64,000 nt of DNA from a virus: IMG/VR virus record IMGVR_UViG_3300036790_000500, positions 43,054 through 107,053 of that record. The stretch is one strand, 5' to 3'. This document shows positions 1 to 63,763 of the stretch, one piece after another. Numbering within the stretch: position 1 is the stretch's first letter; each line of letters starts with the position of its first letter. Both the position numbers and the translations under genes were made by a program. A model generated the notes under the pieces. It did not search any database. It worked only from the letters and a program-made list of their open reading frames with translations, and was not told where the DNA came from.

Positions 1-111
1 TCCCTTAGTGAGATGGAGGAGATGGTGCGAACGTTCCTTGCAACGCCGTTCGGTGAGGGTCGTCATGCCGCTCGCGTGGATAAGGTTTGGCGGCTGGAGC
101 GTCGTCCGTGA
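1..111 (+). CDS. rpiB: Ribose-5-phosphate isomerase B (RpiB/LacAB family), 3' fragment
   Basis: Frame 1 reads SLSEMEEMVRTFLATPFGEGRHAARVDKVWRLERRP*, matching the RpiB C-terminal F..T.F.GGRH..RV.K motif. Its TGA (109-111) overlaps the GTG start of the next gene. Not in the ORF track. Confidence 0.8.
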   Translation, partial: SLSEMEEMVRTFLATPFGEGRHAARVDKVWRLERRP

Positions 112-995
112 GACTCACCGTCATCGGCGACGCCATCGAGGACGAGGTCGTTGACCTCGAGGTCCTGCATGAGGGAGCCGAGGGCCAACCCACGTATCGA
201 GAGGTTCGTCGACGTCTCATGGCCGGTGGGGCCGCGAACGTTGCTAAGCACTGCGCTCGTCTCGGGGCCCATGTTTACCTCGTTCACAGCGGAAAGCCGG
301 AGACGTTCAAGGACGACCTCACGCTGCGAGAGTCGCTGCAAATCATGCAAAACTACGAGGTCGGTCAGGGGTCGGGTCCCCGTGCCGTCATTCGCAAGAC
401 GCGGTATTATTGCGGTGACAGGAAGGTGTTGAAGGTCAACCATCCACCCGAGTGCGAGACGCAGGGGCCCGATGTCACCAGTCAAATGTTGCTCTATGGA
501 CACACTGATGCCGTGCTTGCCTGTGACAACGGTCACGGCTTCTTTAACCAAGAGAATGCCCAAGAATTGGTCCGCCTGTGTGACCGCCGAAGCATTCCTT
601 TGTTTGTAGACTGTCAGGCATCCAGCGGGAGTCCATGCTTCGAGCGATGGTTTGGAGCCAACTCTGTCTTCGTTAACAAGGATGAGGCGGAGCACCTCGG
701 GGCGGCGTGCTCTCGGTTTGAGAACGTTCACTATAAGTGCGGTTTTGCCGGTTCACGCCTCGTCAACCGGAGTACCCCTCCATATGTTCGCGAAGTATGC
801 GGCGGATACTCGGTCAAGGTCGTTGATGCAGTCGGGGCCGGCGACGCCTACATGGCCGCCTGGGCTGTCCATGGAAACCTGAACCTCGCTAACGCCTGGG
901 CGGCCCTCTCCTGTAAGCGAAGGGGAACCGAGTTGCCGGAACTCTCTGAGATTGGAGAAATAGATGCGTCTCTTGCTCGATACGGCGAACCTTGA
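108..995 (+). CDS. PfkB-family sugar kinase, HldE/RfaE kinase-domain-like (copy 1)
   Basis: VIGD..ED, GGAANVA, KTRY and the C-terminal DAVGAGD anion-hole motif. GTG start at 108 (GTGA overlap) preferred over 87. Confidence 0.85.
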   Translation: MRLTVIGDAIEDEVVDLEVLHEGAEGQPTYREVRRRLMAGGAANVAKHCARLGAHVYLVHSGKPETFKDDLTLRESLQIMQNYEVGQGSGPRAVIRKTRYYCGDRKVLKVNHPPECETQGPDVTSQMLLYGHTDAVLACDNGHGFFNQENAQELVRLCDRRSIPLFVDCQASSGSPCFERWFGANSVFVNKDEAEHLGAACSRFENVHYKCGFAGSRLVNRSTPPYVREVCGGYSVKVVDAVGAGDAYMAAWAVHGNLNLANAWAALSCKRRGTELPELSEIGEIDASLARYGEP

Positions 996-1629
996 TGACG
1001 TCAAGCGCTTTGCACAGAATGATGCCATAGCCGGCGTTACCACTAACCCGTCCCTTGTCGCGAGGGAGCAACGGGCCAACTACTTCTCACTCCTGCGTTC
1101 AATCGCTGACGTATTGGGACCGTCTCCGCATCTGAGTGTCGAGGTCATTACCCTTGACCCGGACATAATGTTAAAGCAGGCGGACAGCCTCCATGAACTC
1201 ATTCCTTGTGCGGCAATCAAGGTCCCAGTCCTCCCTGAAACGCTTCGGGTCATCACTCGTTTGCATGACATGAAGATAGCCGTGAATGCGACCGCCTGCT
1301 TCACAGCGCTTCAGGCAAAGATTGCTGAGGATGCGGGTGCGGACTTCGTCTCGTTTTTCTTCAATCGAATGATAGATGCAAAAAGCGGGCAGAGTAATCC
1401 ACGTGAGCACGCTCTCGCTGAGATTTCGACATACAAGCATCGCTTCTGTAGACAGGCCAAGGTCATTTGCGGTAGCATCAGAGAGCCGCTCGACATTCAG
1501 GACTGCTGGGCAAACGGTGCAGACTTCGTGACGGCATCGGCCAAGGTTATCGACCGCGCCGTCACACACGTGAAGACGACCGAGAGCGTGCAGCAGTTTC
1601 AGAAGGACATCGAAGCATGGCTCGCATAA
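964..1629 (+). CDS. talC: Transaldolase, short TalC/FSA type
   Basis: LLLDTANLDD, GVTTNPSL, Schiff-base IKVP, VNATACF and GSIR motifs; 221 aa. Confidence 0.9.
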   Translation: MRLLLDTANLDDVKRFAQNDAIAGVTTNPSLVAREQRANYFSLLRSIADVLGPSPHLSVEVITLDPDIMLKQADSLHELIPCAAIKVPVLPETLRVITRLHDMKIAVNATACFTALQAKIAEDAGADFVSFFFNRMIDAKSGQSNPREHALAEISTYKHRFCRQAKVICGSIREPLDIQDCWANGADFVTASAKVIDRAVTHVKTTESVQQFQKDIEAWLA

Positions 1630-1997
1630 GCAAGAGGACGCTGGCAGAGCGTCATATCCAGGCCCGCGGATGGGGCCGAGAGCATTGGATTGAGAACCTT
1701 CCAGAGTATTGCGGGAAGATACTCGTGATTGACCCGGGAAAGCGCGGCTCATTTCACTTCCATCAAAACAAGATGGAAACGATGCTGGTTATTAAGGGAG
1801 CAATGCGGCTCAGGCTGCTCGACACCGACACGGCAGAGGAGTACTTTCAGGTGCTTATAGAGAACGAAAGCATTCTGCTTAAGCCAGGCCAACCCCATCA
1901 GATAATCAACGATTACAGTGACGAGGAGTTGGTGGTCATCGAGTTCAGCACCATCCATGAGGAGACCGACAGTAAACGCATTCAGAAGGGGGACTGA
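1617..1997 (+). CDS. Cupin-fold sugar isomerase/epimerase-like protein
   Basis: GWGREHW..N...YCGKIL, HFHQNKMET, PGQPHQ and EFST..EETDS.RI.KGD motifs. Confidence 0.8.
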   Translation: MARISKRTLAERHIQARGWGREHWIENLPEYCGKILVIDPGKRGSFHFHQNKMETMLVIKGAMRLRLLDTDTAEEYFQVLIENESILLKPGQPHQIINDYSDEELVVIEFSTIHEETDSKRIQKGD

Positions 1998-2000
1998 GGA

Positions 2001-2924
2001 ATGCGTTTCAATATGGTGGGAGCCTTTCTTCGCAACTTCCCGTTTGGGACGGAAATCGCCTTCGCGAAGGGCCTCGAGCGCCGCGGCCACACGGTCCATC
2101 GCATCGACCCGGGATATCCGAACCAGGTCTGGGACGATGACGCCGACGCCACGATAGTCTTCAAGTGGATTGACCTCGGTCTGAAAGACGTCTACGAGCG
2201 GCTCGAACGCTGTGCCGGTCTGAAGGTCGTCTACCAGCCCGACGACGCCAGGTTTCCACACATCAAGGAGATGATAAGGGGGATGCGTGGCTTCTGTACG
2301 CACCTGCTGTCGTTCGATGACTACGGCGCGGAATACGCGTTGACCGTCGGATACCTCGATGCGGAGACGCTGCGAGTGACCGCCGATGATGAACTGTACT
2401 GTCCCGACTCGAATGTGGAGCGGGACATCGACGTTTCGTTCGTGGGTAGCCTGACCGCTGGCCCGAACCACGCCTCCCGCATGGAGATGTGTCGCCTGGT
2501 ACAGGCCTGGGCGAACGCTAACGGTAAGACCACGTGGTTCGGGGAGACGTACTTCAGCGTTCCCGGCTACCCCTCTCCACTCGACATCTACAGGCGCTCC
2601 AAGGTCGTTCTTAATCATGCGACGGACGTTGGTCAGCCGTTCGGATGGGGGCACGGTTTTCAGTGCAGACACTTTGAGGTGGGGATGGCCGGAGTGTTCC
2701 TGCTCTCGAACATGGTGTATGGGGAACGGTTTGAACTGCTCCATACCCAGTATGGAAACGAGACCCAGTTAATCAACAAGTTGGAAACATACCTCGGCAC
2801 CGGTGGAGGGGTTCTCTTTGACCGAGAGGTCCTCGCAGGCTTCCATCGCAATAACATTCTTCGTGAACACATGCCGGAGCATCGCGCTGACCAGATAGTG
2901 AGTTTCGTCAAGAGGAACACGTGA
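2001..2924 (+). CDS. Glycosyltransferase (CgeB/Glyco_trans_1_2-like)
   Basis: DIDVSFVGS, YRRSKVVLN, RHFEVGMAGVFLLS and C-terminal H..EHRA..I motifs. Confidence 0.8.
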   Translation: MRFNMVGAFLRNFPFGTEIAFAKGLERRGHTVHRIDPGYPNQVWDDDADATIVFKWIDLGLKDVYERLERCAGLKVVYQPDDARFPHIKEMIRGMRGFCTHLLSFDDYGAEYALTVGYLDAETLRVTADDELYCPDSNVERDIDVSFVGSLTAGPNHASRMEMCRLVQAWANANGKTTWFGETYFSVPGYPSPLDIYRRSKVVLNHATDVGQPFGWGHGFQCRHFEVGMAGVFLLSNMVYGERFELLHTQYGNETQLINKLETYLGTGGGVLFDREVLAGFHRNNILREHMPEHRADQIVSFVKRNT

Positions 2925-3553
2925 GGAACATCGCAGACACTGGGGTTGGTTGTAAACTGAATCTCGGTTGCGGGGACGACGTGCGAGAGGGACACGTTAA
3001 CGTCGACTTTAGGCAGACCCATCCGAACGTCATCATCGCCGACCTCTCCAGGTTTCCCTGGCCGTTCGCTGATGCTTGCGCCTCACAGGTCCTGATGCTG
3101 GACTTTCTTGAGCATTTCCCATGGGCCCAGACGGCGCAGATACTACTTGAGTGCTATCGGGTGCTTGAGCCGAGTGGGGTCGTGGTGGTCCAGGTCCCGG
3201 ACGCCCTTCATACGACCCGGGCCCTGACGCAACGGGGGCACTACCGCTGCAACCGATGTGGCGCGGGGTTCCATGACGGCGAGGTCACGGGCACACGACC
3301 TGGGTGCCCTGGGTGTGGACAGACCAGGGACGAGGTCTCCGAGGTCGCCATGCGAAGGTTCTACGGCGGTCAGGACTACCCGGGAAACTGGCATCAGACC
3401 TGTTTCACGGAGCAGATGTTGAGGTCGAAGGCCAAGGCCGCAGGCCTGGAGCAAATCGAGCGTGGAACACACGACGCTAAGGCCGGCGACGACGAACATT
3501 ACTGGGCGAACTGGACGCTGCACATGACGTTCAGGAAGGGTGACTTGTGGTAG
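2921..3553 (+). CDS. SAM-dependent methyltransferase (type 11-like) with CxxC...CxxC insertion
   Basis: KLNLGCG, VNVD, DL..FPWPF, FLEHF and ECYRVL..SG motifs; insert CNRC...CPGC. Confidence 0.8.
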   Translation: MRNIADTGVGCKLNLGCGDDVREGHVNVDFRQTHPNVIIADLSRFPWPFADACASQVLMLDFLEHFPWAQTAQILLECYRVLEPSGVVVVQVPDALHTTRALTQRGHYRCNRCGAGFHDGEVTGTRPGCPGCGQTRDEVSEVAMRRFYGGQDYPGNWHQTCFTEQMLRSKAKAAGLEQIERGTHDAKAGDDEHYWANWTLHMTFRKGDLW

Positions 3554-4617
3554 AAGACCGCTCCCGAAACCTCCGCGTCGCCTTCGTCGGTCAGTCCCGC
3601 TCCCCTAACGACATGCCTGAGGGGTATTGGCCAACGTTCTTGAAGTTCCATATGGAACTCCCGTATTACTTTGCCATGAACGCTCCGATGGACGTGACCG
3701 TCACCACGACGGAGCCGGTCACGCACGAGTTCGAGAGCAATCTAGGCTCACTTCGCTGCATCACTGAGGATGAGTTCTGTGACAATCCGCAGACCGGGAT
3801 GAACTACGACGTCGTCGTGCACTGGCGGAAGTGGTTCGAGTCCCTGTACTGCATGGGCGGACGGAACGTCATCCTCTCCCAGGACCACTCGTACTCCCGT
3901 GACTGGTTGGAGACGGCCAAGGACGCCTATGTCGATGGCCTACTCGACGGCGTCCTGGTCTTCCCGACTTGGCATCGACGCAACACGGAACGCGAACTGA
4001 CCGGGGTCCTGCCCTCCAGCCGCCTCTACGAGGGTCTGACCTTCGGCGTGGACACCTCTGTCTATTACCCCATGGAGAAGGACCCCTTCCATCTCCTGTG
4101 GGCCTCCGACCCCGGCAGGGGCCTCGATGACTTCATCAACCCGTTCCTAAGGCTCTGGCAGCGCGACCGCCGGTTCCGCCTGACGGTGACCTATCCGGAC
4201 TACGTGAGGCCCGAGGCAGTCGCTCGGTTCTCAAGTTTTCTATCGCATCCGGCCGTTAGCCATCGGCCGAGACTACGCAACGGCCCTGAACTCTGGAACC
4301 TCTTCAACTCGGCCGGCTTCCTGCCGTATTCCTCCAATTTTCCAGAGCCGTCGAGCCGTTGCCATCGCCAGGCCATGGCCGCCGGCTGCTGCGTGCTCTA
4401 TCCCCCGAACATGGGAACGCCGTCCGAGACCATCGAGAGCGGTTTGACGGGAGTAATCGAGAGTCCTCGGCTCTGGTCTGACGTGATACCTACGCTTGTG
4501 AAAACCGGACAGTGGGAGGAACTCGGGCATAACGCTCGCGTGTTCGCTCACTCCGAGAGGTGGGCGGTCCAGGCCCAGCGTTTCTACGACTTCTTCTCCA
4601 GGGGACTCCAGCAGTGA
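3547..4617 (+). CDS. Glycosyltransferase (GT4/GT-B-like)
   Basis: LLWASDPGRGLD, YSSNFPEPSS...QAMAAGC, SETIESGLTG and terminal W..QA..F motifs. Confidence 0.8.
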   Translation: MVEDRSRNLRVAFVGQSRSPNDMPEGYWPTFLKFHMELPYYFAMNAPMDVTVTTTEPVTHEFESNLGSLRCITEDEFCDNPQTGMNYDVVVHWRKWFESLYCMGGRNVILSQDHSYSRDWLETAKDAYVDGLLDGVLVFPTWHRRNTERELTGVLPSSRLYEGLTFGVDTSVYYPMEKDPFHLLWASDPGRGLDDFINPFLRLWQRDRRFRLTVTYPDYVRPEAVARFSSFLSHPAVSHRPRLRNGPELWNLFNSAGFLPYSSNFPEPSSRCHRQAMAAGCCVLYPPNMGTPSETIESGLTGVIESPRLWSDVIPTLVKTGQWEELGHNARVFAHSERWAVQAQRFYDFFSRGLQQ

Positions 4618-5603
4618 TTGACATCCAAGCCGAGGACTTCGTCCAGGCATTCGACATGACCCAGGCCACGGTCGGCCAGGTCGGTTACGGCTTCATTGGA
4701 AACGCAGTCGTTGAGTTGTTTCGACCGCACTGTCAAGTTGCGGTTTACGACAAGGCCGGCTACGGGGGCAAGGAGCGTCCACCCAATGTCACGCTTTGCG
4801 AGGACCTCGACGGCGTCGTGGCTAACGCTGAGGTCGTCTTCGTGGCCGTTCCGACCCCGATGAAGCCGTCGGGTGAGTGTCACACGGGCATCGTCGAAGC
4901 GGTGCTTCAAGACATCCAGAACTCCGCCGTTCGCATCGGTCGGGATGTGATGTCGTTCATCGTGGTCATCAAGAGCACGATGCCACCGGGCTTCACGGCG
5001 CGGATGCAGGAGAGGTACGCGCTCCGCATCCTCTTCTCTCCCGAGTTCCTGACGGAGGCGAACGCGGTCCAGGACTTTAAGAAGGCCAATCGCGTGATTC
5101 TCGGCGGTGAGGTAGAGGACGCTCGGGTCGTCTTCAAGTACTTCGAGGGAGTGTGGCCGGACCGCCAGCCGAACACTTGGATAAACGGCGAGGGAGGCCA
5201 CCCAGACGGACCGGTACAGGTCATTCAATGCGACAGCACCGAGGCCGAGATGGTCAAGTTGTCGACTAACGTTCACCTGACGGCAAGGGTAATGGTCTCC
5301 AACGAACTCTATCAAATCTGTCAGAAACTGGGAATCGACTACGACACCGTGCGACTGCTCACGCAACTTGACCGTCGCATCGGTCTCAGCCACATGAATG
5401 TGCCGGGTCCGGACGGTTCCCTGGGGTTCGGAGGCCATTGCTTCTGGAAAGACACACAGAGCCTTAAGTTCATTACGGAAAATCTGGGGACTCTCGGTCT
5501 ATCTGGTCGCTCTATCTTTCACACTCTCGTTGAGAGAAATCTTGAAATTCGTGAAGACCGTGACTGGGAAAAGCAACCCGGCAGGGCGGTCATCAATGAG
5601 TGA
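4614..5603 (+). CDS. UDP-glucose/GDP-mannose 6-dehydrogenase family protein (short form without C-terminal domain)
   Basis: VGYGFIG Rossmann motif, FVAVPTP, IKSTMPPG, FSPEFLTE, AEMVKL and catalytic GFGGHCFWKD. GTG start at 4614 via GTGA overlap. Confidence 0.88.
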   Translation: MIDIQAEDFVQAFDMTQATVGQVGYGFIGNAVVELFRPHCQVAVYDKAGYGGKERPPNVTLCEDLDGVVANAEVVFVAVPTPMKPSGECHTGIVEAVLQDIQNSAVRIGRDVMSFIVVIKSTMPPGFTARMQERYALRILFSPEFLTEANAVQDFKKANRVILGGEVEDARVVFKYFEGVWPDRQPNTWINGEGGHPDGPVQVIQCDSTEAEMVKLSTNVHLTARVMVSNELYQICQKLGIDYDTVRLLTQLDRRIGLSHMNVPGPDGSLGFGGHCFWKDTQSLKFITENLGTLGLSGRSIFHTLVERNLEIREDRDWEKQPGRAVINE

Positions 5604-6069
5604 GCGGTTTACGATTAACCTCGATGAACTCGAGTTCAACGGAGAGGCTGGGCTGCTGACCAACGTTCGTGGCCGCTGCATCGTGGCCAACGGCTGCTTC
5701 GACATCATCCATCCCGGTCATCTCTCTCTCCTCGCTAGCCTCGACACGCTGGCCTACCAGATGAAGTTGCGGCCCATCGTGGCCATGAACTCGGACGCTT
5801 CAGTTCGACGATTGAAGGGCGACGCCCGACCGATAGTCCCCCAGGAGAGCCGGTCCCTCCTCATCAACTCCCTGAAGTGGCCCCTGACGGTGGTCCTCTT
5901 TGACGAGGACACACCGCAACGGTTGATGGACGTGTTGCAGCCGGCCGCCGTTCTCAAGGGCTCCGAGTACCCGAAGGAAGCCGTGATACGATGGAGGGAC
6001 AGCCAGGTCGTCACGGTGGACATGGTCCCCGGGTGGTCGACCTCAAGGATAGTCGGCGATACGAGGTAA
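5596..6069 (+). CDS. HldE/RfaE domain II-like heptose-1-phosphate nucleotidyltransferase
   Basis: ANGCFDIIHPGH (HxGH), NSDASVRRLKG..RPI, FDEDTP, KGSEY and WSTSRI motifs. ATG at 5596. Confidence 0.88.
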   Translation: MSERFTINLDELEFNGEAGLLTNVRGRCIVANGCFDIIHPGHLSLLASLDTLAYQMKLRPIVAMNSDASVRRLKGDARPIVPQESRSLLINSLKWPLTVVLFDEDTPQRLMDVLQPAAVLKGSEYPKEAVIRWRDSQVVTVDMVPGWSTSRIVGDTR

Positions 6070-6070: not shown

Positions 6071-7027
6071 TTGAAGAGGGTTCTGGTCATCGGGGACGTC
6101 ATCAAGGACGTCTACACCGACTGCGTTTTTAGAAAGATGTGTCCGGACGCGCCGACGGTCCCCGCGGCTCTCGTCGACCGAACTTCCTTCCGGCCCGGGG
6201 GTGCAGCGAACGTTGCCCTGAACATCGCCCAATTGGCACCCGGCGTCCACGTCGACCTAATCGGCGTCGTCGACGTGGACCTAAAGCGAACCATCGGAGC
6301 CATTTCTGAACAGATGGTTGCAATGGATTGGGCGGTCCTCGGGAGCCCCCTCGAGAAAAACCGTGTCTCCGTTGACGGTGAACTTCGGTTGCGTCTCGAC
6401 GACCAGGGAAAACTAAACCCCTGGTACGGCAGCCACATCGCCCTCAACCTGAGGGACTACCTCGGCTACGTCACTCCAGACCTCATAGTCTTGTCTGAGT
6501 ACGCCGGAGGGACGGTGGATGACCAATCCCTGGACCTTCTGCTTGAGCATCGCTCGAGGCTCCTGGTGGACACTAAGCGGACGGACCTATCGGTCTTCGC
6601 CGTGGGGGGCCAGTCCACCCTGCTTTGCAAACTGAACCATGAGGAGTGGATGAACGTCGTCAAGACCGATTCGACCCCTGAAGGCCACTTCAAGTACCTC
6701 GTCGTGACGGAGGGTCGAGCCGGGTCCGTCCTCCGTCGAATGGAGCGGTTGCTCGCGTCCCAGACAGGGGTCACCGTTGCCCGACACATCACCCATACGC
6801 TTCGAGTCTCGGCCGTCATGGCCGAGACGGTTGACGTCTGTGGCTGCGGGGACACGTACCTAGCCGGCATGGTCGCATCGCTCCTGGACAACGCGGACCC
6901 GTACACCGCCATGCAGTTCGGTGCCGCCGCCGCGGCCACCGTCGTCACGAAGCCTCGGGTCGCTGTGGCGGACCGCGCACTCACCCTGCAGATACTTGGA
7001 AGGACTCACGAAGATGAAACTCTCTAA
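6071..7027 (+). CDS. PfkB-family sugar kinase, HldE/RfaE kinase-domain-like (copy 2)
   Basis: RVLVIGDVIKDVY, CPDAP.VP, PGGAANVALN, LVDTKR, KLNHEE and DVCGCGDT motifs. Confidence 0.85.
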   Translation: MKRVLVIGDVIKDVYTDCVFRKMCPDAPTVPAALVDRTSFRPGGAANVALNIAQLAPGVHVDLIGVVDVDLKRTIGAISEQMVAMDWAVLGSPLEKNRVSVDGELRLRLDDQGKLNPWYGSHIALNLRDYLGYVTPDLIVLSEYAGGTVDDQSLDLLLEHRSRLLVDTKRTDLSVFAVGGQSTLLCKLNHEEWMNVVKTDSTPEGHFKYLVVTEGRAGSVLRRMERLLASQTGVTVARHITHTLRVSAVMAETVDVCGCGDTYLAGMVASLLDNADPYTAMQFGAAAAATVVTKPRVAVADRALTLQILGRTHEDETL

Positions 7028-7702: not shown

Positions 7703-8377
7703 ATGCCAATGTACTTCGGCCCCGAGGTCGACGCCAAGATATCGGAATACGTCAAGGAGACTGACGTCCCCACGAAGAACAAGATTTTCGAAGACAGCAT
7801 CCGACCGGCGCTGCTCAAACTAATCGAGAGTCAACTCTACATGTACGGGTTCTATAAGATTGATGACCCGGACATGCTCAAGAACGAGTGCCTGTCAAAC
7901 CTATACGAGATTCTTCCCAAGTTCGACCCAAACAAGGGCAAGAAGGCCTTCTCGTACTTCAATGTCGTCGTCAAGAACTGGTTCATCTGGAAGATTCGCG
8001 ACAAGAACAAGCGGCTAAGGCAGCAGTCTGAGAACTTCTACGGCATCGACCACGACGTCGTCCGCAACGACCCATCGCTGATATCCGCCTCACACGAGGA
8101 TAACATCGTAGATGCGGAGTTCCTGCTCTCTCTTCATCGGGACATGGACAAGTGGCGACCGCTCCTTCAGAAGGACCAGGAACGAAAGGTCCTGGATGCC
8201 ATTCGGTTTCTCCTTCAGAATCCAGACCTGGTGACTATCTTTAACAAGAAGGCCGTCTTCTTTTACATTCGTGAAATCACGGGGTTGACCATGAAGCAGG
8301 TCAACCATAACATGAATAGATTGAGGGCCTTATACTCGGAGTTCCGAGAGAGGTTCCACAGTGGGGAAGAAGAGTGA
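7703..8377 (+). CDS. Phage late sigma factor (T4 gp55-like)
   Basis: Region-2-like ECLSNLYEILPKFDPNKGKKAFSYFNVVVKNWFI; lies immediately before the structural genes. Confidence 0.8.
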   Translation: MPMYFGPEVDAKISEYVKETDVPTKNKIFEDSIRPALLKLIESQLYMYGFYKIDDPDMLKNECLSNLYEILPKFDPNKGKKAFSYFNVVVKNWFIWKIRDKNKRLRQQSENFYGIDHDVVRNDPSLISASHEDNIVDAEFLLSLHRDMDKWRPLLQKDQERKVLDAIRFLLQNPDLVTIFNKKAVFFYIREITGLTMKQVNHNMNRLRALYSEFRERFHSGEEE

Positions 8378-10043: not shown

Positions 10044-10430
10044 ATGAGTTACGGAGTTTCCTTTCCGCTCGCCTATGCGACCGGTTCGGTCGGTTACCTA
10101 GAGCCAACAAACGACATCGTTTCGGCCCTTCAGTCGAACGTCCGTTGCCTCCTCCTCACCAACTGGGGAGAGCGCGTCATGCACGCGGACATGGGTGGCA
10201 ACTTCCGCGGCTTTCTGTTCGAACCGATGACGAACACCCTGCGCGCCGCCGTCGCCGCTCGGGTCAAGCAGCAACTATCCAAGTGGCTGCCGTTCCTTAC
10301 CCTGACAGGCCTCACCGTCACGTTCTCCTCTGAGGACGCCTCGATTTCCGACCCTGGGTTTCGCGTCGAGATGGCAATGTCGTACGGCAACGTGCCCGTC
10401 AACCTCTCCCTGCTCTATCCGCCCTCCTGA
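10044..10430 (+). CDS. Baseplate wedge protein, gp25/GPW family
   Basis: GVSFPL and LLLTNWGERVMHADMGGNFRGFLFEP...WLPFL motifs. Confidence 0.9.
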   Translation: MSYGVSFPLAYATGSVGYLEPTNDIVSALQSNVRCLLLTNWGERVMHADMGGNFRGFLFEPMTNTLRAAVAARVKQQLSKWLPFLTLTGLTVTFSSEDASISDPGFRVEMAMSYGNVPVNLSLLYPPS

Positions 10431-10438
10431 GGTCACCG

Positions 10439-19194: not shown

Positions 19195-19196
19195 CA

Positions 19197-52543: not shown

Positions 52544-54100
52544 ATGCCGATGAGCACCCCGTCCCCGACCACCGTGACGCTGCTCTCGGGCAGCACCACC
52601 GAAACCACCTCGGGTGGCACGCCCAACGGTAGGTCCAACCCGACCTGGGTGACCGGCTCGGTTTACGTCCTGAACCAAACGGCCGGCGGCGCGGCCTCCA
52701 ACGTCGTCGCCAACAGCGGCTCCGTCGTGGGCCTGCTCATGGGCGGCCAACCGGTCTCGACCGGCAATCCGGTCGTCGTCACTGGCAGCGTCTACGTCAT
52801 CAATCCATCGGGCGGCGGCTCCGGCGGCAACATTACGTCACAGAGCGGAAGCGTCACCGGCCTGCTCATGGGTGGCCAACCGGTGGCGGGCGCCAATCCC
52901 CTCTGGGTGACCGGCTCCGTGGGCCTTACCAACTCACCGGCCTCCACCACAGTCATCTCTGGAAGCGTCTCGGGGCTCCTCGTTGGAGGGCAGCCGAACT
53001 CCCAGGCCAACCCGCTTCCGGCGCTACACGTCAGCGGCTCCGTGACCGGTCTCCTGGTCGGGGGACTTGGCGTCTCGACCGCGAACCCCGTGCCGGTGGT
53101 CCAAGAGGGAACGGTCACGGTCACGGGGTCAATAGGCTTCACCCAGGGAATCGCGATAACGGCGCTTCCCAGTGTCACGGTCAGCAACTTCCCTGCGACG
53201 CAGGCAATCACCGGTAGCGTCGGGTTGACCGCCGCGGTCACCGTCGCCAATCCGCAGACCACTGTGACGACCGTCTCCGGCTCCGTGGCCGGGTTGCTCC
53301 AGGGCGGTCAGGTCGTCTCGACGGCCAATCCGCTTCCCATCACGGGTTCCGTCTACATCATAAATCCGTCGGGGGGAGCCGGAGGAAGCGTTACCGCGCA
53401 GAGCGGCTCGGTCACCGGTCTCCTCATGGGTGGACTGCCTGTCTCCAGCGGCAACCCGCTCTGGGTCACCGGGTCCGTCTATGTCTTGGACCCAGGCGGC
53501 GGAGCGGGAGGCAGCGTGACGGTGCAGTCCGGCTCCGTCACCGGCCTGTTGGTCGGCGGCCAGCCCGTCTCCGCCGCCGACCCCGTCCCCGTCTCCCAAC
53601 AGGGGACCGTCACCGTCACCGGCTCCGTCGGCTTCACCCAGGGTGTCGCGGTCACCAACTTCCCCGTCACCCAGAACGTGGCCTCCGGCTCGGTCGTCGG
53701 ACTGCTCATCGGCGGCGTCCCGGTAAATTCCACGAATTGGGTGCCTGTGCAGGACGTGGCCGGCACGCTGGCCGACGAGACGGGCGTCGTTCGGACCGTC
53801 AACCGGTCGTTCGCCAATGCGACGACGTCCGGAAACACCCAGGTCGTCGCGGCCCAGGGAGCCGGCGTTCGCATCCGGGTCATCGCGGTCCACGTCATGA
53901 CGGACACCGCCATGGCCATAAAGTTTCAGTCCGCGACGAGCGACATCTCGGCCGGAATGGTCCTGGCGGCAAACGGAGGCTACGTGAAGCAGGAGAACGA
54001 ACACGGCTGGTTTCAGACGGCGGCGAACGCCGCTCTGAACATTAACCTCGGGGTAAACGGCAACGTCGGCGTCGATGTGGTCTGGGTACAGGCGACCTGA
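52544..54100 (+). CDS. Repeat-rich head fibre/decoration protein
   Basis: About eight SGSV.GLL.GG.PVS..NP..VTGSV repeats; GAGGAG RBS; C-terminal domain shared with 16596-17345. Confidence 0.75.
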   Translation: MPMSTPSPTTVTLLSGSTTETTSGGTPNGRSNPTWVTGSVYVLNQTAGGAASNVVANSGSVVGLLMGGQPVSTGNPVVVTGSVYVINPSGGGSGGNITSQSGSVTGLLMGGQPVAGANPLWVTGSVGLTNSPASTTVISGSVSGLLVGGQPNSQANPLPALHVSGSVTGLLVGGLGVSTANPVPVVQEGTVTVTGSIGFTQGIAITALPSVTVSNFPATQAITGSVGLTAAVTVANPQTTVTTVSGSVAGLLQGGQVVSTANPLPITGSVYIINPSGGAGGSVTAQSGSVTGLLMGGLPVSSGNPLWVTGSVYVLDPGGGAGGSVTVQSGSVTGLLVGGQPVSAADPVPVSQQGTVTVTGSVGFTQGVAVTNFPVTQNVASGSVVGLLIGGVPVNSTNWVPVQDVAGTLADETGVVRTVNRSFANATTSGNTQVVAAQGAGVRIRVIAVHVMTDTAMAIKFQSATSDISAGMVLAANGGYVKQENEHGWFQTAANAALNINLGVNGNVGVDVVWVQAT

Positions 54101-55922: not shown

Positions 55923-56261
55923 ATGGCCAGCGAAGCCCAGTTCAATACCACCGCCGTCTCGGGCTCGGACCAGCACTGGTTGGTCGCAAGCACCGTCAGC
56001 ACGACCCTCATTCTCTCGGCCTCCCAGGAGCAGCGGAGCCACGCGTCAATCTTCAATGACAGCCCGGCCACCCTCTACTTGAAGTTCGGTTCAGACTCGA
56101 GCATGGCGACCGGCTCGTCCGGCGTCTGGGACGTCAAGTTGACCTCTGGAACGTACTTCGAACTGCCGAAGCCCGAGTGGCAGGGCGAGGTCTGGGGCTC
56201 CTGGGACAGCGGCTCGGCGGGCGGCTTCGCTCGCGTCTTGCAACTCGGAACTCCTCGCTGA
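55923..56261 (+). CDS. Small beta-rich virion protein
   Basis: R...SIFNDSPATLYLKFG...L.SG.YFELP...GEV.G.W pattern seen in small head decoration-like proteins. Confidence 0.6.
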   Translation: MASEAQFNTTAVSGSDQHWLVASTVSTTLILSASQEQRSHASIFNDSPATLYLKFGSDSSMATGSSGVWDVKLTSGTYFELPKPEWQGEVWGSWDSGSAGGFARVLQLGTPR

Positions 56262-56341: not shown

Positions 56342-57499
56342 ATGCCCTTCACTCCCGGTTCAACTGCCTTCGGTGTTTACGACAACGACGCGATGTTCGC
56401 GTCCGATGCGGACCACATCGTGAAGTACGTTTCGGTGAAACTCGGCGGCGGATTGCCTCCGATAGTCGGACCGGACGGGACCCACGTACAGGTGGAACTC
56501 TCGTCGTCGGACATCTACACATGCTTCGAGGAGGCAACGGTCGAGTACTCCGCCATCGTGAACGCCTATCAGGCGAAGTCCGCGATGGCCTCGTATCTCG
56601 GGTCCAACACAGGCTCGTTGACCGGTGGACAGAACCGGTATCCGGCCAACTCGCTTGAGTGGGCCCGACGGCAGGCCCAGCCCTTCGGTGAGGAGGCCTA
56701 CGTCGGCGGCAATCGCACGCTCTATAGCGCTTCAATTCAACTCCAACCGGGCGTGCAGGACTACGACCTCCAGGAACTCCTGAACCCGACCGGGTCGGAC
56801 GGGTCCCCCTGTCGAATCATCGTTCGTAAGATATTCCACTTCTCTCCGTTCGCGACCGCGCGCTTCTTTGGAACGACCGCGGCCATCAACTACCTGAACG
56901 GCCAGTTCAACTTTCAGAGTTTCACGCCGGAGTCGGTCTTCTACATGCTCCCGGTCTGGGAGGACGTCCTTCGCGGGGCCCAGTTTGAACTCTCGAACAA
57001 GGTTCGACGGTCCAACTACAGTTTCGAGATGCACGGGCCGGACAACGTTCTGAAGGTCCTTCCCTGTCCGAACTGCGACAACACGATGTTCCTGACCTAC
57101 AACCTCATGGACATGTCCATCGAGCCGGTCGACCCGAACGACCCGATGACGTACGGGGTGTCCAACCTCAGCGACATTCCGTTCGGCAACATCTCGTACT
57201 CGAGCATCAACTCAATCGGTCGACAGTGGATATGGAAGATGTCTCTCTCCTACGCTAAGGAGGTCCTCGGTCTTATTCGTCGAAAGATGCTGACCGTGCC
57301 CATCCCGGGCGGTGACCTCCAACTCGACGGCAGCGACCTGGTGAACGACTCTCGCCAGGAGATGGACGCGCTGCGCGGGGAACTCCGGGACCTACTGGAC
57401 TCCATGACCTACGACAAGTTGGCCGCCAAGGAGGCCGAGCAGGCCGCGAACCTGACTCGGTTGCTGAGCGGGGTCCCGATGCGGATATACACCGGCTGA
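56342..57499 (+). CDS. Neck protein (T4 gp13-like)
   Basis: KLGG...VELS...FEEA..EYS, QDYDL and AKEVLGLIRRK...PIPGGDLQLDG motifs. Confidence 0.85.
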   Translation: MPFTPGSTAFGVYDNDAMFASDADHIVKYVSVKLGGGLPPIVGPDGTHVQVELSSSDIYTCFEEATVEYSAIVNAYQAKSAMASYLGSNTGSLTGGQNRYPANSLEWARRQAQPFGEEAYVGGNRTLYSASIQLQPGVQDYDLQELLNPTGSDGSPCRIIVRKIFHFSPFATARFFGTTAAINYLNGQFNFQSFTPESVFYMLPVWEDVLRGAQFELSNKVRRSNYSFEMHGPDNVLKVLPCPNCDNTMFLTYNLMDMSIEPVDPNDPMTYGVSNLSDIPFGNISYSSINSIGRQWIWKMSLSYAKEVLGLIRRKMLTVPIPGGDLQLDGSDLVNDSRQEMDALRGELRDLLDSMTYDKLAAKEAEQAANLTRLLSGVPMRIYTG

Positions 57500-61334: not shown

Positions 61335-61340
61335 TATTTA
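61335..61340 (+). promoter_or_regulatory. Putative late promoter core TATTTA before the tail sheath gene
   Basis: AT-rich hexamer in a GC-rich spacer, just after the CGGCTT..AAGCCG hairpin. Confidence 0.45.
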
Positions 61341-61390
61341 ACGCCGGGGTTTTCTCCCCAACGGTCGTTTCGAAGAGGATGAGCAACTAA

Positions 61391-63763
61391 ATGGCGCAGA
61401 GCTTCCTGTCCCCCGGTGTCCAGACGAACGAGGTCGACCAGTCGTTCCTGCAGGCGGGAGCGCCGCAACCGGCTGCAATCATGATTGGACGGACCGCCAA
61501 GGGTCCGGCCTTCTATCCAGTCACGGTTAGCAACTACTCGGACTTCGTCTCCCAGTTCGGTGACGTAGACCCGACCGGTCGCCTCGCGAGCGCCCTACCG
61601 TACGCGGCTCGCAACTACCTGATGAACTCGACGTCCCTGACGGTCGTTCGCGTCCTCGGTTCCGCCGATGGCACGACGGTCAACAACGGGTACAACGTCG
61701 GTACAATCTTCGGCATCTGCGACACCTCAGGTTCGACGAATTCTACCGGTTCCGTTCTGGCGGTCGTCCATACCTCACAGCCCTTCGTCTCGATGAGCCT
61801 CGCGGGTGTCGCCGGAGACGCCAATCGGTTCGTGATTAAGTTCGGCACAGTCTTCGCGACTACGGCCAGTTTCCTCACGAGTTCCGACGACTACGTCGGA
61901 AAGTCCCTGAACAGCGACCCCACGCAGTACGGCACCTATGGCCACTACGTCTATCAGATTTTCGGCTATCAGACCCAGAACGTGTCGGCCTCGTGGTCGG
62001 CCGTCAACTCCATCTCCTCCTCGTTCACGGCGTTTAACCGCGACTACGACCACGGTCGGTCGGCCTTCATTAAGAGCCAGCCGGTCGGCGGAATCGAGTA
62101 CGACCTCTTCCGCTTCAACACCCTGGGCCGCGGTCGGGCGACCAACGACGACATCAAGATTCAAATCGACAACGTGAAGCCGTCGTCGGTCCCGAACGTC
62201 TACCCGTACGGCACCTTCGACGTCCTCGTTCGCTCCTTCTATGACAACGACAGCCGACCGGTTGTCCTCGAGACCTGGGCCGGCTGCACCCTCGACCCGA
62301 ACAGCCCGAACTTCATCTCCCGTCAAATCGGTGACGTCGACGAATCGTTCAACACCGCAACTCGTAAGTTCGCCATCAACTCCGGAAAGTATCCGAACAA
62401 GAGCCAATACGTTCGGGTCGAGATTCCCACGAACAACAACCCGCCTCCCACGGCGCTTCCGTGGGGCTTCCGCGGCTACTTTAAGACCCTCTTCTCCGGT
62501 TCGAACGCCGGCACCGGCGGCGCCCTCGGCGCCGCTCAGGTTCCGCCGCTGCAGTACGTCGTGAACCAGTTCGACACGAACGGCAACTACAACGGCAACA
62601 TCGTCTGGGGTGTGCAGTTCCTCTCGGGCGGCGTCGTTGACCGGATGCGGGCGATGCCTGACGGGGCGGTCAACGCGCTCGCTCCGCTCACGGCCTCGGA
62701 CCCGGACTTCTCGCTCCGGTTCCTCTCTGGAACGTACATCAACGGAAGCCTCCGGTTCGCCTATAACACAGCAACTCCGGTCAACTACCTTCCAATCTTT
62801 AGTTCGGCGTCCCTTCAGACCTTCACCGTTCCGTTCTGGGGTGGCTTCGACGGTTGGGACCTCCGCGTGGCGGACCCGCTGTACCTGAACAACACAGACG
62901 GAACCTCGGTGATTGGCGTCGTCGCCTCGCAGCGCGCCGTCGACTGCGTCGCCAATCCCGACCAGGTCGCGGGTAACACGCTCGCCCTTCCGGGCCAGAC
63001 CAACATCGCGGTCTGCGACTATGCGCGAAGCCTGGTCAACAGCCGCATGGACATGTACTACGTGATGGACGTGACGGGCGCGACGCCGAACGAGGTCATC
63101 GCGAACCTGAACGCCCGTCAAATCGACGACAACTACAGCGGCTGCTACTACCCCGACCTCTGGATTAAGGACCAGACCTCGAACAACATCCTCCGGATGC
63201 CGCCGTCGGTCGGCGTGATGGGCGCCCTCGCCTATAACGATAGAGTGGCCCAGGCGTTCTTCGCTCCCGCTGGCATGAACCGCGGCGGCCTCGGCCAGTT
63301 CGGCGTGATTGACATCGTCGACCGCCTGGACCACCAGGACCGCGACCAACTCTACGAGGCCCGCATCAACCCGATTACGAAGTTCCCCGTCGAGGGCATC
63401 GTGATATTCGGGCAGAAGACCCTGCAGTTGAAGCAGTCGTCGCTGACCCGGGTCAACGTTCGTCGTCTGCTCATCCTCGCGAAGGGCGCGGTGGCCTCGG
63501 TCGCCAACACCCTCCTCTTCGAGCCGAACAACCCGGCCACTTGGACCCGGTTCGTCAACAAGGTGAACCCAATCCTGGACGCCTATCGCAGTGCCCAGGG
63601 CATCAACCGGTTCAAGGTCGTGATGGACAACACCACGAACACCCCGGACAAGATTGACGCGAACGAGATGTACGGGAAGATATTCCTTGAGCCGGTCCAG
63701 GCCGCTGAGTTCGTGAGCATCGACTTCGTCATCACGGCGGCCGGAGTGACCTTCGGTAGTTGA
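61391..63763 (+). CDS. Tail sheath protein (T4 gp18-like)
   Basis: FLSPGVQTNEVDQS, GRTAKGPAF.P, YYPDL, FAPAG.NRG, INPI, FGQKTL and RVNVRRLL motifs. Confidence 0.95.
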   Translation: MAQSFLSPGVQTNEVDQSFLQAGAPQPAAIMIGRTAKGPAFYPVTVSNYSDFVSQFGDVDPTGRLASALPYAARNYLMNSTSLTVVRVLGSADGTTVNNGYNVGTIFGICDTSGSTNSTGSVLAVVHTSQPFVSMSLAGVAGDANRFVIKFGTVFATTASFLTSSDDYVGKSLNSDPTQYGTYGHYVYQIFGYQTQNVSASWSAVNSISSSFTAFNRDYDHGRSAFIKSQPVGGIEYDLFRFNTLGRGRATNDDIKIQIDNVKPSSVPNVYPYGTFDVLVRSFYDNDSRPVVLETWAGCTLDPNSPNFISRQIGDVDESFNTATRKFAINSGKYPNKSQYVRVEIPTNNNPPPTALPWGFRGYFKTLFSGSNAGTGGALGAAQVPPLQYVVNQFDTNGNYNGNIVWGVQFLSGGVVDRMRAMPDGAVNALAPLTASDPDFSLRFLSGTYINGSLRFAYNTATPVNYLPIFSSASLQTFTVPFWGGFDGWDLRVADPLYLNNTDGTSVIGVVASQRAVDCVANPDQVAGNTLALPGQTNIAVCDYARSLVNSRMDMYYVMDVTGATPNEVIANLNARQIDDNYSGCYYPDLWIKDQTSNNILRMPPSVGVMGALAYNDRVAQAFFAPAGMNRGGLGQFGVIDIVDRLDHQDRDQLYEARINPITKFPVEGIVIFGQKTLQLKQSSLTRVNVRRLLILAKGAVASVANTLLFEPNNPATWTRFVNKVNPILDAYRSAQGINRFKVVMDNTTNTPDKIDANEMYGKIFLEPVQAAEFVSIDFVITAAGVTFGS

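Follow-up and report, generated by a model that had tools for sequence, protein, structure and literature searches.

A candidate O-glycosylation acceptor motif, [ST]-G-S, in the outer virion proteins of a clade of T4-like phages

The tripeptide [ST]-G-S occurs in marked excess in the window, i.e. the whole 64,000-nucleotide stretch of DNA, from an uncultured T4-like phage, analysed here, and this excess is confined to the outer virion proteins (tail, baseplate and fibre). It is suggested that [ST]-G-S may serve the whole clade as an O-glycosylation acceptor motif, recognised by a pair of GT4-type glycosyltransferases, a reading that may well hold but is put forward tentatively. When all tripeptides of the late proteins were scanned, SGS ranked first (41 seen vs 9 expected) and TGS second (32 vs 7.5), and both kept these ranks when the tandem-repeat protein was omitted (z 11.7 and 8.9, respectively). 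The same scan gave no comparable SGS/TGS excess in early/replication and non-structural proteins, and [ST]GS was not in excess over the 43 kb preceding the window.

Expectations for individual proteins were derived from 1000 composition-preserving shuffles of each protein. The hand counts of [ST]GS in an earlier note on this DNA proved exact, protein by protein, and stand well above the shuffled expectation, e.g. 18 vs 1.7 in 13638-16562 (Table 1); its report of none in the Mre11-Rad50 fusion or the terminase and one each in the primase and a portal intein was reproduced on recounting (0, 0, 1 and, for the portal, 1). The motif had also been listed for gp25, gp6, the neck and the sheath, which stands for the neck and the sheath, whereas the gp25-like and gp6-like proteins, whose genes were used to anchor the retrieval of related loci, are at chance. 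The major capsid protein carries eight [ST][GA][ST] sites at residues 160-428, five of them within 160-312, and its match to the major-head-protein family starts at residue 329.

Table 1. Genes of the window in the sugar-gene island and the late region
Coordinates	Strand	Feature	Evidence
87..995	+	PfkB-family sugar kinase	PF00294 E 3e-10; TIGR02198 E 4e-13, 49 bits vs cut-off 345; best match HldE domain I (heptose-7-phosphate kinase), far under the curated cut-off
964..1629	+	Fructose-6-phosphate aldolase/TalC-type transaldolase	PF00923 E 2.5e-35; TIGR00875 E 1e-42; possible source of sedoheptulose-7-phosphate
1617..1997	+	Small cupin, like C-terminal domain of mannose-6-phosphate isomerase	PF07883, PF01050; TIGR01479 E 9e-9; candidate sugar-phosphate isomerase
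2001..2924	+	Glycosyltransferase (Glyco_trans_1_2)	PF13524 E 4.5e-6, 27.1 bits vs cut-off 25; G001 orthologue at 47% identity
2921..3553	+	SAM-dependent methyltransferase	PF08241 E 7e-6
3547..4617	+	GT-B fold, GT4-like glycosyltransferase	ESM Atlas feature score 0.99 to Glycos_transf_1 clusters; structure TM 0.85-0.87; no family match in Pfam, PHROGs or NCBIfam
4560..5603	+	Nucleotide-sugar 6-dehydrogenase (makes uronate)	PF00984, PF03721; TIGR03026 E 1e-37
5398..6069	+	HldE domain II-like sugar-1-phosphate nucleotidyltransferase	PF01467 E 4e-11; TIGR02199 E 9e-31, 107 bits vs cut-off 181; homology limited to residues 93-219, so true start probably further downstream
6071..7027	+	Second PfkB kinase, HldE domain I-like	TIGR02198 E 4.5e-32, 111 bits vs cut-off 345
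7703..8377	+	gp55-like late sigma factor	phrog_234 E 2.8e-6; between sugar island and baseplate genes
10044..12274	+	gp25-like and gp6-like baseplate wedge genes	phrog_43, phrog_219; 1 motif each, chance
12271..13632	+	Baseplate or fibre-module protein	5 [ST]GS vs 0.7 expected
13638..16562	+	974-aa protein, LamG/concanavalin-like jelly-roll domain	18 [ST]GS vs 1.7 expected
16596..17345	+	249-aa protein	5 motifs vs 0.9; NPxxV-[ST]GS-VxGLLxGG repeat in common with 52544-54100 (BLASTP E 3e-17)
18975..21251	+	758-aa fibre or baseplate protein	13 [ST]G[ST] vs 2.7 expected
29221..30216	+	About 331-aa protein	5 [ST]GS; apparent start codon ATT
30268..32151	+	627-aa protein, Laminin_G_3 domain	PF13385 E 1e-8; 11 [ST]GS vs 1.3 expected
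50417..52168	+	Major capsid protein	phrog_138 E 5e-74, residues 329-564; 1 [ST]GS, chance
52544..54100	+	518-aa repeat protein, just downstream of capsid gene	About 17 tandem 21-22-residue repeats, [ST]GS in each
55923..56261	+	112-aa late protein	3 [ST]GS vs 0.5 expected
56342..57499	+	Neck (gp13-like) protein	phrog_211 E 2.5e-4; 2 motifs vs 0.4 expected
61391..63763	+	Tail sheath	phrog_23 E 9e-62; 3 [ST]GS vs 0.8 expected

The enrichment extends to homologues of these proteins. The 12271..13632 family is enriched across seven genomes (27 seen vs 3.8 expected), 73 full-length homologues of the 974-aa protein carry a mean of 14.4 motifs (1.6 expected), and the G001 orthologue of the 758-aa protein has 13 [ST]GS against 2.9 expected. 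Homologues of 29221..30216 are 330-336 aa long, with six motifs in G002 and five in G003 (0.5-0.6 expected), three homologues of 30268..32151 (31-45% identity) have 10 motifs each in columns that are partly shared and partly different, and neck homologues have 3-4. The repeat protein 52544..54100 contains 17 [ST]GS (2.0 expected) spaced 20-30 residues apart, and its homologues differ in repeat number.

Enriched families fall into 27 single-linkage clusters without detectable mutual similarity, eight of which have more than one member and six of which span at least two genomes; the largest is held together by common LamG-like and C-terminal domains. The proteins concerned had been described as unrelated, which is right for several families, but others share domains: a LamG-like domain is common to 13638-16562 and 30268-32151, the C-terminal domains of 29221-30216 and 30268-32151 are paralogous, and 52544-54100 and 16596-17345 share the 21-22-residue tandem repeat, so that the motif counts of the latter two are not independent events. 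The excess in several dissimilar families, together with its absence from early/replication proteins, suggests a trans-acting factor. Such a pattern, spanning many families and late proteins only, would suit any trans-acting reader, and the factor could be one other than a glycosyltransferase, for instance a host enzyme or the B12-radical SAM enzyme carrying out another post-translational modification, or a fibre-assembly chaperone specific to the clade. This is considered improbable: the B12-binding radical SAM enzyme of the sugar-gene island has some weak matches to RiPP-modifying enzymes, but its gene has no orthologue in the closest relative, G001, or in the wider clade, no kinase, ligase or protease is conserved with the motif, and an adjacent GT4-type pair is alone among the island genes in being conserved clade-wide.

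Since the 94 motifs are encoded by 56 different 9-mers, the signal lies at the protein level and not in a DNA word. Enrichment of xGS was found only where x is S or T, that of [ST]Gx only for S and, to a lesser degree, T, and that of SxS and TxS only for G and, to a lesser degree, A, while SSG, GSS, TSG, GTS, NGS, DGS, SGN and SGD were all at expectation in these specificity counts. Among homologues of the 974-aa protein, about 95-100% of sequences have S or T at position 1 of the conserved sites, and these two residues replace each other freely. Judged from sequence, this specificity looks more like a recognition motif than a generic turn. The main alternative, a serious if somewhat doubtful one, is that [ST]-G-S is an inherited structural idiom, namely a tight β-turn made of an ST-turn cap and a type II' G-S loop, which would have been fixed early in the β-sandwich and fibre domains of the clade, with the sugar island serving host-surface remodelling, auxiliary metabolism or another acceptor. 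A generic turn preference should, however, raise N-G, D-G, G-N and G-D and also favour V, I or Y ahead of G-S, and no such enrichment is seen; moreover, T4, phiM9, Kuja and DLP_6 show no motif excess although their fibres are β-rich.

G-S is a classic type II' two-residue hairpin loop. In an AlphaFold model of residues 125-400 of the 974-aa protein (pLDDT 83), which has a LamG/ConA-like fold, 10 of the 13 motifs occupy loops or two-residue hairpins, mostly right before a strand, and the other three overlap a strand end or start; two motifs form exact two-residue hairpins. The placement in turns envisaged in the earlier note holds for the loops and tight hairpins of this one confident model of a LamG domain, and in the poor model of 52544..54100 (pLDDT 52) the SGS sites are three-residue breaks between strands. 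Such strand-loop-strand junctions favour the structural alternative, as does the sharing of LamG-like or repeat domains by many enriched proteins, whereas the spread of the excess over families of no detectable mutual similarity speaks against it. So do the tail sheaths, which are homologous and yet differ between lineages: seven clade sheaths hold 37 motifs in total (6.7 expected), with 3-9 [ST]GS each (4-12 as [ST]G[ST]), compared with none in T4 gp18 and one in S-RSM4. The motifs of the clade sheaths all fall within the variable middle of the protein, and the sheath of the window has none in its conserved C-terminal core. Within this family the motif tracks lineage and not fold.

The excess is common to uncultured relatives of 28-66% GC and is also seen in the cultured phages Flavobacterium immuto, Microcystis Mel-JY01 and Rhodothermus RM378. 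Genome-wide, SGS and TGS rank within the top 10 tripeptides in every clade member (1 and 2 in G000, 1 and 4 in immuto, 1 and 6 in G005, 3 and 7 in RM378). The expected co-occurrence of enrichment with glycosyltransferases was seen in all sufficiently complete relatives with the excess, and four outgroup phages lacking the conserved transferase pair showed no motif excess; it is weakened by cyanophage S-RSM4, where the excess is moderate (ranks 13 and 50; z 4.5 and 3.4) and neither GT1 nor GT2 gave a hit, a combination that a structural idiom would allow. As motif and transferase pair are both traits of one clade, their co-occurrence represents a single evolutionary event and cannot count as an independent correlation. 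For the 974-aa family, about 20 inherited sites account for the excess, and motifs at private positions are at the chance rate (1.2 vs 1.6 expected), so there is no sign of ongoing gain in this family, again in line with an inherited idiom. The motif is thus neither newly nor, as first proposed, convergently acquired in this phage, but is an old, clade-wide trait.

The GT4-type pair (G000:C1:30094-31425 and the N-terminal domain of 32706-35801) was found in the clade alone among 50,697 phage records and is kept in phages whose hosts range from Cyanobacteria, Flavobacterium and Rhodothermus to unknown high-GC hosts. That one enzyme pair is retained where cell envelopes differ so much points to a phage-made acceptor, and an inherited structural idiom gives no account of a pair that is a core gene set in phages of unrelated hosts. 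The nearest solved structure to the conserved 443-aa transferase is chlorovirus B736L (E 3e-9), for the C-terminal GT-B domain only.

The island containing the pair spans about 20 kb, encodes up to 10 glycosyltransferase domains and directly precedes the late genes, with which it shares the strand. The cluster of soluble glycosyltransferases and sugar-nucleotide enzymes was recognised correctly by the earlier note within the window, but it reaches about 13 kb further, upstream of the window. Other island genes encode RpiB, a ribulose-5-P epimerase-like enzyme, a GT9 heptosyltransferase domain with LPS heptosyltransferases as its best, weak match, and the B12-radical SAM enzyme. No NCBIfam model matched the transferases 2001-2924, 3547-4617 and L001:16150-17052, no BAHT-type match was obtained among the proteins scanned against NCBIfam, and no phosphoglycosyl transferase, flippase, polymerase or oligosaccharyltransferase was matched in Pfam among the larger island genes (i.e. 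all but three small ORFs). The island's transaldolase, RpiB and aldolase genes are similar to auxiliary metabolic genes known from phages, which would fit an island unconnected with the motif. Heptose, uronate and methyl genes are restricted to near relatives while the motif is clade-wide, which makes a BAHT-like heptosyltransferase an unlikely reader of the motif; the heptose/uronate coat first proposed as the basis of the motif is thus not supported for the clade.

It is very improbable that the island glycosylates phage DNA and that the protein motif is unrelated to it, even though T4 glucosylates hydroxymethylcytosine and GT-B enzymes acting on DNA are classic for T4-like phages. One preprint describes phage glycosyltransferases that hypermodify DNA with glycans (bioRxiv 10.1101/2023.12.21.572611), and G001 has a divergent thymidylate-synthase-family gene. 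However, LC-MS of immuto DNA shows only dA, dC, dT and fdPreQ1 (bioRxiv 10.1101/2023.04.13.536721), which argues against DNA as the transferase target, Mel-JY01 and RM378 keep the GT pair but have no ThyA-family gene, the record (52% complete) gave no ThyA or Tet/JBP hit, and a set of up to ten transferase domains with a heptose pathway far exceeds the needs of any known DNA glycosylation.

Under the favoured O-glycosylation reading, modification would be cytoplasmic and would target the phage's own outward-facing virion proteins. The soluble GT-B/GT4-type pair would attach the first sugar or sugars to the hydroxyl of a Ser or Thr located in a short loop or tight β-hairpin of a baseplate, fibre, neck or sheath protein that is folded or still folding, with [ST]-A-[ST] and [ST]-G-T as putative weaker acceptors. 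Lineage-specific island genes would then extend and decorate the glycan, the set here comprising an NDP-heptose-like pathway fed by RpiB, the ribulose-5-P epimerase-like enzyme and the TalC-type aldolase, as well as the GT9 domain, the sugar 6-dehydrogenase, the SAM methyltransferase, the B12-radical SAM enzyme and further transferases. We infer the action of the transferases on the motif proteins, the residue modified and the nature of the glycan.

Among known systems, virion O-glycosylation is reportedly found in the mycobacteriophages Che8, Corndog and Myrna, as Freeman et al. are said to have described in Cell Host Microbe in 2023. There too, phage-encoded soluble glycosyltransferases and accessory methyltransferases from lineage-variable gene sets are said to act in the cytoplasm on the phage's own virion proteins, but the acceptors are reportedly capsid and tail-tube subunits with Ser/Thr-rich C-terminal extensions and no defined short sequon, whereas the candidates in the T4-like clade are baseplate, fibre, neck and sheath proteins with a defined tripeptide across folded domains and a conserved GT4 pair. 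Glycosylation is reportedly proven in the mycobacteriophages and is what we infer in the T4-like clade. GtfA/GtfB O-GlcNAcylate serine-rich repeat adhesins such as GspB and Fap1. They are reportedly likewise two paralogous side-by-side GT-B/GT4-type proteins acting on Ser-small residue-Ser acceptors, with further transferases extending the glycan. However, no specific sequence relationship was found, B736L and not GtfA being the nearest solved structure, both proteins of the phage pair retain the EX7E motif, and the phage acceptors would be isolated tripeptides in folded β domains instead of long low-complexity serine repeats.

Modification of TibA/AIDA-I by the bacterial autotransporter heptosyltransferases TibC/Aah is also cytoplasmic O-glycosylation of many serines at short turns of a repetitive β-structure, and TibC heptosylates Ser preceding small residues, in N-S-G-G and T-S-A-A, in the β-helix of TibA (Yao et al. 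2014, eLife, PMC4358343). The phage similarly has an NDP-heptose-like pathway, a GT9 domain and the repeat protein 52544-54100, but its GT9 domain is weakly nearest to LPS heptosyltransferases with no BAHT-type match, most of the clade has the motif but no heptose genes, and TibC modifies Ser only whereas position 1 of the phage motif takes Thr as readily as Ser. Chloroviruses such as PBCV-1 are eukaryotic giant viruses with N-linked glycans on the major capsid protein, unlike the phages; they make their own glycan with cytoplasmic glycosyltransferases, independently of host machinery and at non-canonical sequons, and their virus-encoded GT4 B736L (NY-2A, PDB 3OY2) is, among solved structures, the nearest to the conserved phage transferase.

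The virus record is 107 kb long (GC 61%; completeness 52% by CheckV estimate), and its last 64 kb form the window. All real genes lie on the + strand; judged from sequence, the source is a T4-like phage that has diverged very far. A megablast search with the late region gave no match among cultured phages; by protein, the closest cultured phages are Mel-JY01 (from Microcystis) and immuto (Flavobacterium), at ~35% identity in the terminase and gp6, followed by LR756508, a 484-kb uncultured phage, and RM378 (Rhodothermus). An earlier note had proposed that the tripeptide Ser/Thr-Gly-Ser ([ST]GS) serves as an O-glycosylation sequon in the virion proteins of this phage. Its hand counts of [ST]GS proved exact, and comparison with composition-preserving shuffles, which it had suggested, placed every one of them far above expectation. 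The count for 29221-30216 applies when the gene is read from an ATT codon, as its homologues require: 331 open codons follow from ATT, the homologues in the relatives G002 and G003 have 336 and 330 aa, and the earliest ATG/GTG/TTG start would give merely 234 aa; a rare start codon, or a start that is otherwise unusual, is probable. The contrast drawn with other proteins also held, [ST]GS being absent from the Mre11-Rad50 fusion and the terminase and present once each in the primase and the portal.

Features of the window and of the sugar island that begins upstream of it (plain coordinates are window positions; G000:C1 is the contig of the whole record and L001 a locus that includes DNA upstream of the window)
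Feature	Position	Strand	Remarks
974-aa protein	13638-16562	+	18 [ST]GS, 1.7 expected
Late protein	30268-32151	+	11 [ST]GS, 1.3 expected
Late protein	52544-54100	+	17 [ST]GS, 2.0 expected
Late protein	12271-13632	+	5 [ST]GS, 0.7 expected
Late protein	55923-56261	+	3 [ST]GS, 0.5 expected
Late protein	29221-30216	+	5 [ST]GS, read from ATT
gp25-like and gp6-like baseplate wedge proteins	window	+
gp55-like late sigma factor	window	+
Primase; RuvC-like resolvase	window	+
Large terminase	window	+
Prohead protease; gp23-like capsid protein	window	+
Neck protein; sheath	window (sheath gene at 61391)	+
Mre11-Rad50 fusion, 1040 aa	33752-36874	+	SbcD/Mre11 N-terminal, SbcC/Rad50 C-terminal
Portal, 1249 aa	40684-44433	+	HNH/intein-type inserts
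AT-rich word copies	49274, 55908, 56267, 61334	+	15-75 nt 5' of late genes
Island 1: GT4 transferase, 443 aa	G000:C1:30094-31425
Island 2: SDR epimerase/dehydratase
Island 3: GT4-GT9-GT2 fusion, 1031 aa	G000:C1:32706-35801 (L001:7706-10801)		5' of window
Island 4: weak GT2-like protein
Island 5: GT4, 366 aa
Island 6: B12-binding radical SAM enzyme	G000:C1:38497-40104 (L001:13497-15104)		5' of window
Island 7: GT1_2 transferase
Island 8: weak GT9-like protein			below threshold
Island 9: L-ribulose-5-P-epimerase-like class II aldolase
Island 10: RpiB
Island 11: HldE-domain-I-like kinase
Island 12: TalC/FSA aldolase
Island 13: cupin
Island 14: second GT1_2
Island 15: SAM methyltransferase
Island 16: GT4-like protein			seen by ESM Atlas only
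Island 17: nucleotide-sugar dehydrogenase
Island 18: HldE-domain-II-like nucleotidyltransferase
Island 19: second HldE-domain-I-like kinase

When all tripeptides were scanned in the late proteins without the tandem-repeat protein, SGS ranked first (41 against 9.1 expected, z 11.7) and TGS second (32 against 7.5, z 8.9), while the same scan of the non-structural proteins gave no comparable signal and no excess was found in the 43 kb 5' of the window. A short acceptor-type motif over-represented in late proteins and at expectation in early ones, the pattern by which a sequon is recognized, is therefore present. An origin at the DNA level was ruled out, since the 94 motifs are written with 56 different 9-mers, which places the signal at the protein level. 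The counts in 52544-54100 and 16596-17345 are not independent events, as both proteins carry a common 21-22-residue tandem repeat, NPxxV-[ST]GS-VxGLLxGG; a LamG-like domain is common to 13638-16562 and 30268-32151, and a C-terminal domain to 29221-30216 and 30268-32151.

The specificity of the motif is narrow. Enrichment of xGS was confined to x = S or T, that of [ST]Gx to S and, more weakly, T, and that of SxS and TxS to G and, more weakly, A; the flanks showed a mild hydrophobic preference at positions -1 and +3 only, and the classic turn dipeptides NG, DG, GN and GD were at expectation. An artefact of composition or low complexity was ruled out because the permuted SSG, GSS, TSG and GTS were likewise at expectation, and it is further countered by two giant S/G/T-rich proteins of the low-GC relative G005 (2568 and 1142 aa; G005:C1:66171-77328, loci L256-L257), which, opposite to the fibre proteins, are depleted in [ST]GS (32 against 79 expected and 9 against 30, respectively). 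Glycosyltransferase genes lie directly 3' of these giant proteins.

The excess extends to the relatives of this phage. Full-length homologues of the 974-aa protein (73 sequences at 39-63% identity) carry a mean of 14.4 motifs where 1.6 are expected, and in gp6-anchored loci from 33 viral contigs (28-60% GC, 33-71% gp6 identity) the genes 3' of gp6 show a 5- to 16-fold excess nearly throughout, one short locus having ~3-fold. The baseplate and fibre modules of immuto and Mel-JY01 hold 61 motifs against 13.8 expected and 45 against 6.7, respectively, and the structural region of RM378 holds 27 against 6.6; upstream non-structural genes show little or no excess, with 1 motif in immuto (1.2 expected) and 6 in Mel-JY01 (1.9 expected), of which four fall in a putative chitinase that adjoins the baseplate genes. 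Genome-wide, SGS and/or TGS stand within the top 10 of ~8000 tripeptides in every clade member. A general property of T4-like virions was ruled out, as T4 virion proteins show no excess (7 motifs against 11.5 expected) and the genome-wide ranks in phiM9, Kuja and DLP_6 are above 1000; the cyanophage S-RSM4 is intermediate (ranks 13 and 50). Single-linkage clustering grouped the enriched proteins into 27 clusters, of which eight are multi-member; six of the eight cover at least two genomes and two consist of paralogues inside one genome. In seven sheaths of the clade, 37 motifs were counted where 6.7 are expected; all lie in the variable middle and none in the conserved C-terminal core, compared with no motif in T4 gp18 and one in the S-RSM4 sheath. 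Within this family it is lineage, not fold, that the trait tracks.

The position of the motif was addressed with an AlphaFold model of the 974-aa protein covering residues 125-400 (42 aligned sequences, pLDDT 83, pTM 0.80), a stretch that forms a concanavalin/LamG jelly roll. The model contains 13 motifs. Ten are placed in loops or in two-residue hairpins, mostly directly before a β-strand, and include two exact two-residue hairpins (strand-S, G-S, strand); the remaining three overlap with a strand at its end or start. A poor model of the tandem-repeat protein (pLDDT 52) gave a weak hint of SGS in three-residue breaks between strands. Within the 974-aa family (the 73 homologues) the excess sits at ~20 homologous sites, each kept in 22-93% of sequences, where position 1 is almost always S or T, freely interchanging, G is near-invariant, and position 3 prefers S over T and T over A; rare columns hold 1.2 motifs per sequence against 1.6 expected, the chance rate. 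Four homologues in the 30268 family (31-45% identity) carry 10-11 [ST]GS each, or 11-15 counting [ST]G[ST], in columns that are partly shared and partly different. The trait is therefore old and maintained, not recently acquired.

G-S is a textbook type II' hairpin loop. This and the location of the excess at inherited sites count against the glycosylation reading, and the motif may instead be an inherited structural idiom, which we regard as a serious possibility, somewhat less likely than glycosylation. The narrow specificity of the motif, its occurrence in dissimilar families, its restriction to the outer virion and its lineage-specific presence in sheaths fit a trans-acting factor that reads the motif; that such a reader would be something other than a glycosylation system is considered quite unlikely.

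The cluster of transferase and sugar genes that had been noticed 5' of the late genes is present, but is larger than first described: the island starts at G000:C1:30094, ends at window position 7027, covers ~20 kb and comprises 22 genes. Up to 10 transferase domains were counted (four GT4, two GT1_2, and one strong and one weak each of GT9 and GT2), and a Pfam scan of the island genes except three small ORFs found no phosphoglycosyl transferase, flippase (Wzx), polymerase (Wzy) or oligosaccharyltransferase. Among the scanned genes, soluble transferases thus occur without lipid-carrier, flippase or oligosaccharyltransferase machinery, the genomic arrangement of phage virion glycosylation systems of the mycobacteriophage type. 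Genes of heptose type include the two HldE-domain-I-like kinases, the HldE-domain-II-like nucleotidyltransferase, the TalC-type aldolase and the SDR epimerase, which matches HldD-like proteins; all heptose-pathway matches are below cut-off, those to HldE domains I and II scoring 49-111 bits against curated cut-offs of 181-345. A complete GmhA-HldE-GmhB-HldD pathway was not found at curated cut-offs, and neither SIS-type GmhA nor HAD-type GmhB was detected among the island proteins of this record, which is 52% complete; the cupin may stand in place of the pathway isomerase. It is a fair guess that the glycan of this phage would contain heptose and uronate and be methylated. The radical SAM enzyme has its best matches among PhpK, HpnJ and BchE-type methyltransferases, and no orthologue of it was found even in the closest relative, G001.

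Across the clade, orthologues exist for only two of the 22 island genes: the GT4 of 443 aa and the 1031-aa fusion, the latter through its N-terminal GT4 domain. The domains of the fusion are GT4 at residues ~1-320, GT9 at 575-666 (PF01075, E 5.5e-11) and GT2 at 756-865. This GT4 pair, adjacent in every genome that has it, was found in G001, immuto (gp181 and gp180, the latter a separate gene corresponding to the first domain of the fusion only), Mel-JY01, the relatives G005 and G007, and RM378, where the match to the second transferase is marginal (37% over 54 residues, E 7e-4). Its members are distant paralogues (21% identity), each with an intact EX7E motif. In a search of 50,697 phage records, the 443-aa transferase was confined to Mel-JY01, the four immuto records, LR756508 and RM378; its closest solved structure is the chlorovirus glycosyltransferase B736L. 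All clade contigs covering the syntenic place have both the pair and the motif excess, and T4, phiM9, Kuja and DLP_6 have neither. This co-occurrence of excess and GT4 pair amounts, however, to one evolutionary event in one clade, and in S-RSM4 a weaker excess goes with the lack of any GT1 or GT2 match; both points count against the glycosylation reading. The relative G006, with a strong excess and no pair, was rejected as a counter-example, being collinear with G005 and ending before the position of the pair, and the fragments G002 and G003 start inside the tail module and are therefore uninformative on transferases. Unlike the pair, the remainder of the island varies by lineage. In immuto (locus L274, NC_055915.1 49172-59988) the genes after the pair encode a GT2, two WecE-type aminotransferases, a methyltransferase, a mannosyltransferase, an epimerase and an acetyltransferase-like 'pilin glycosylation protein', which replace the heptose genes and suggest an amino-dideoxy sugar where this phage would have heptose.

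The analogy with bacterial heptosyltransferases of the BAHT type made in the earlier note is mechanistically apt if glycosylation is right, TibC being known to modify Ser in N-S-G-G and T-S-A-A turns (PMC4358343). The enzyme assignment, however, was wrong: on this reading the heptose genes would be decoration confined to certain lineages, and none of the proteins scanned against NCBIfam matched a model of BAHT type. BAHTs (TibC/Aah) are a subfamily of GT9-like heptosyltransferases. The GT9 domain of the 1031-aa fusion was not assignable to that subfamily: in NCBIfam it has weak matches, all to LPS heptosyltransferases III, RfaQ and RfaF, and none to a BAHT-type model.

The GT4 pair belongs to the core genes of phages that infect Cyanobacteria, Flavobacterium, Rhodothermus or unknown high-GC hosts, which is most simply explained by an acceptor made by the phage itself. 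That the target of the island is DNA is very improbable, since LC-MS of immuto DNA gave dA, dC, dT and fdPreQ1 only (bioRxiv 10.1101/2023.04.13.536721) and Mel-JY01 and RM378 have no ThyA-family gene; a Tet/JBP search is uninformative, the control genomes also lacking a match. The best single explanation is that the GT4 pair O-glycosylates [ST]GS, a reading given slightly less than even odds. In such a system, the pair would attach a glycan at [ST]-G-S on baseplate, fibres, neck and sheath, and the downstream sugar genes would be swapped in each lineage to vary the coat, with heptose/uronate here and amino-dideoxy sugars in immuto. The wider proposition of a clade-wide, self-made virion glycan at a defined three-residue O-glycosylation sequon, with the GT4 pair as enzymes and lineage-varied decoration, in T4-like phages that infect Cyanobacteria, Bacteroidota and unknown high-GC hosts, is tentative and given somewhat less than an even chance. 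To our knowledge, it would be the first case in tailed phages of virion glycosylation directed by a sequon. Literature searches on immuto and Mel-JY01 turned up neither proteomic or glycan data nor any account of glycosylated virions.

Were [ST]GS a sequon, it would provide a sequence rule for spotting glycosylated virion proteins in metagenomes and a compact two-enzyme system, of possible use in glyco-engineering, that modifies folded β-domains at a tag of three residues. It would also explain the large 'LPS-like' sugar islands of lytic T4-like phages, which may build a variable particle glycan coat and so affect how the host is recognized, how stable the particle is and how immunity or defence is evaded. 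A purely structural motif would represent a rare, lineage-wide turn 'dialect' across several protein families and counsel caution in inferring modification from the excess of a motif. Because three clade members (immuto, Mel-JY01 and RM378) are in culture, either answer is cheap to obtain.

The T4-type late promoter TATAAATA does not occur in the whole record. The AT-rich word [CT]T[AT]TTT(T)A[AG] has four + strand copies in the 107 kb, all intergenic and preceding the genes at 49294, 55923, 56342 and 61391 (sheath), and is a candidate late-promoter element; with TATAAATA absent and this word at four late genes only, promoter-based timing of island expression was dropped. The late genes 54103-54900 and 54907-55695 are neighbouring paralogues (56% identity over the full length, BLASTP E 1e-97), neither matching a PHROG family. 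Homology of the portal is broken into blocks by inserts matching HNH endonucleases at ~residues 186-268 and 776-853, which would fit the presence of one or two inteins, and the Mre11-Rad50 fusion is kept as one protein in G001, G002 and G003.
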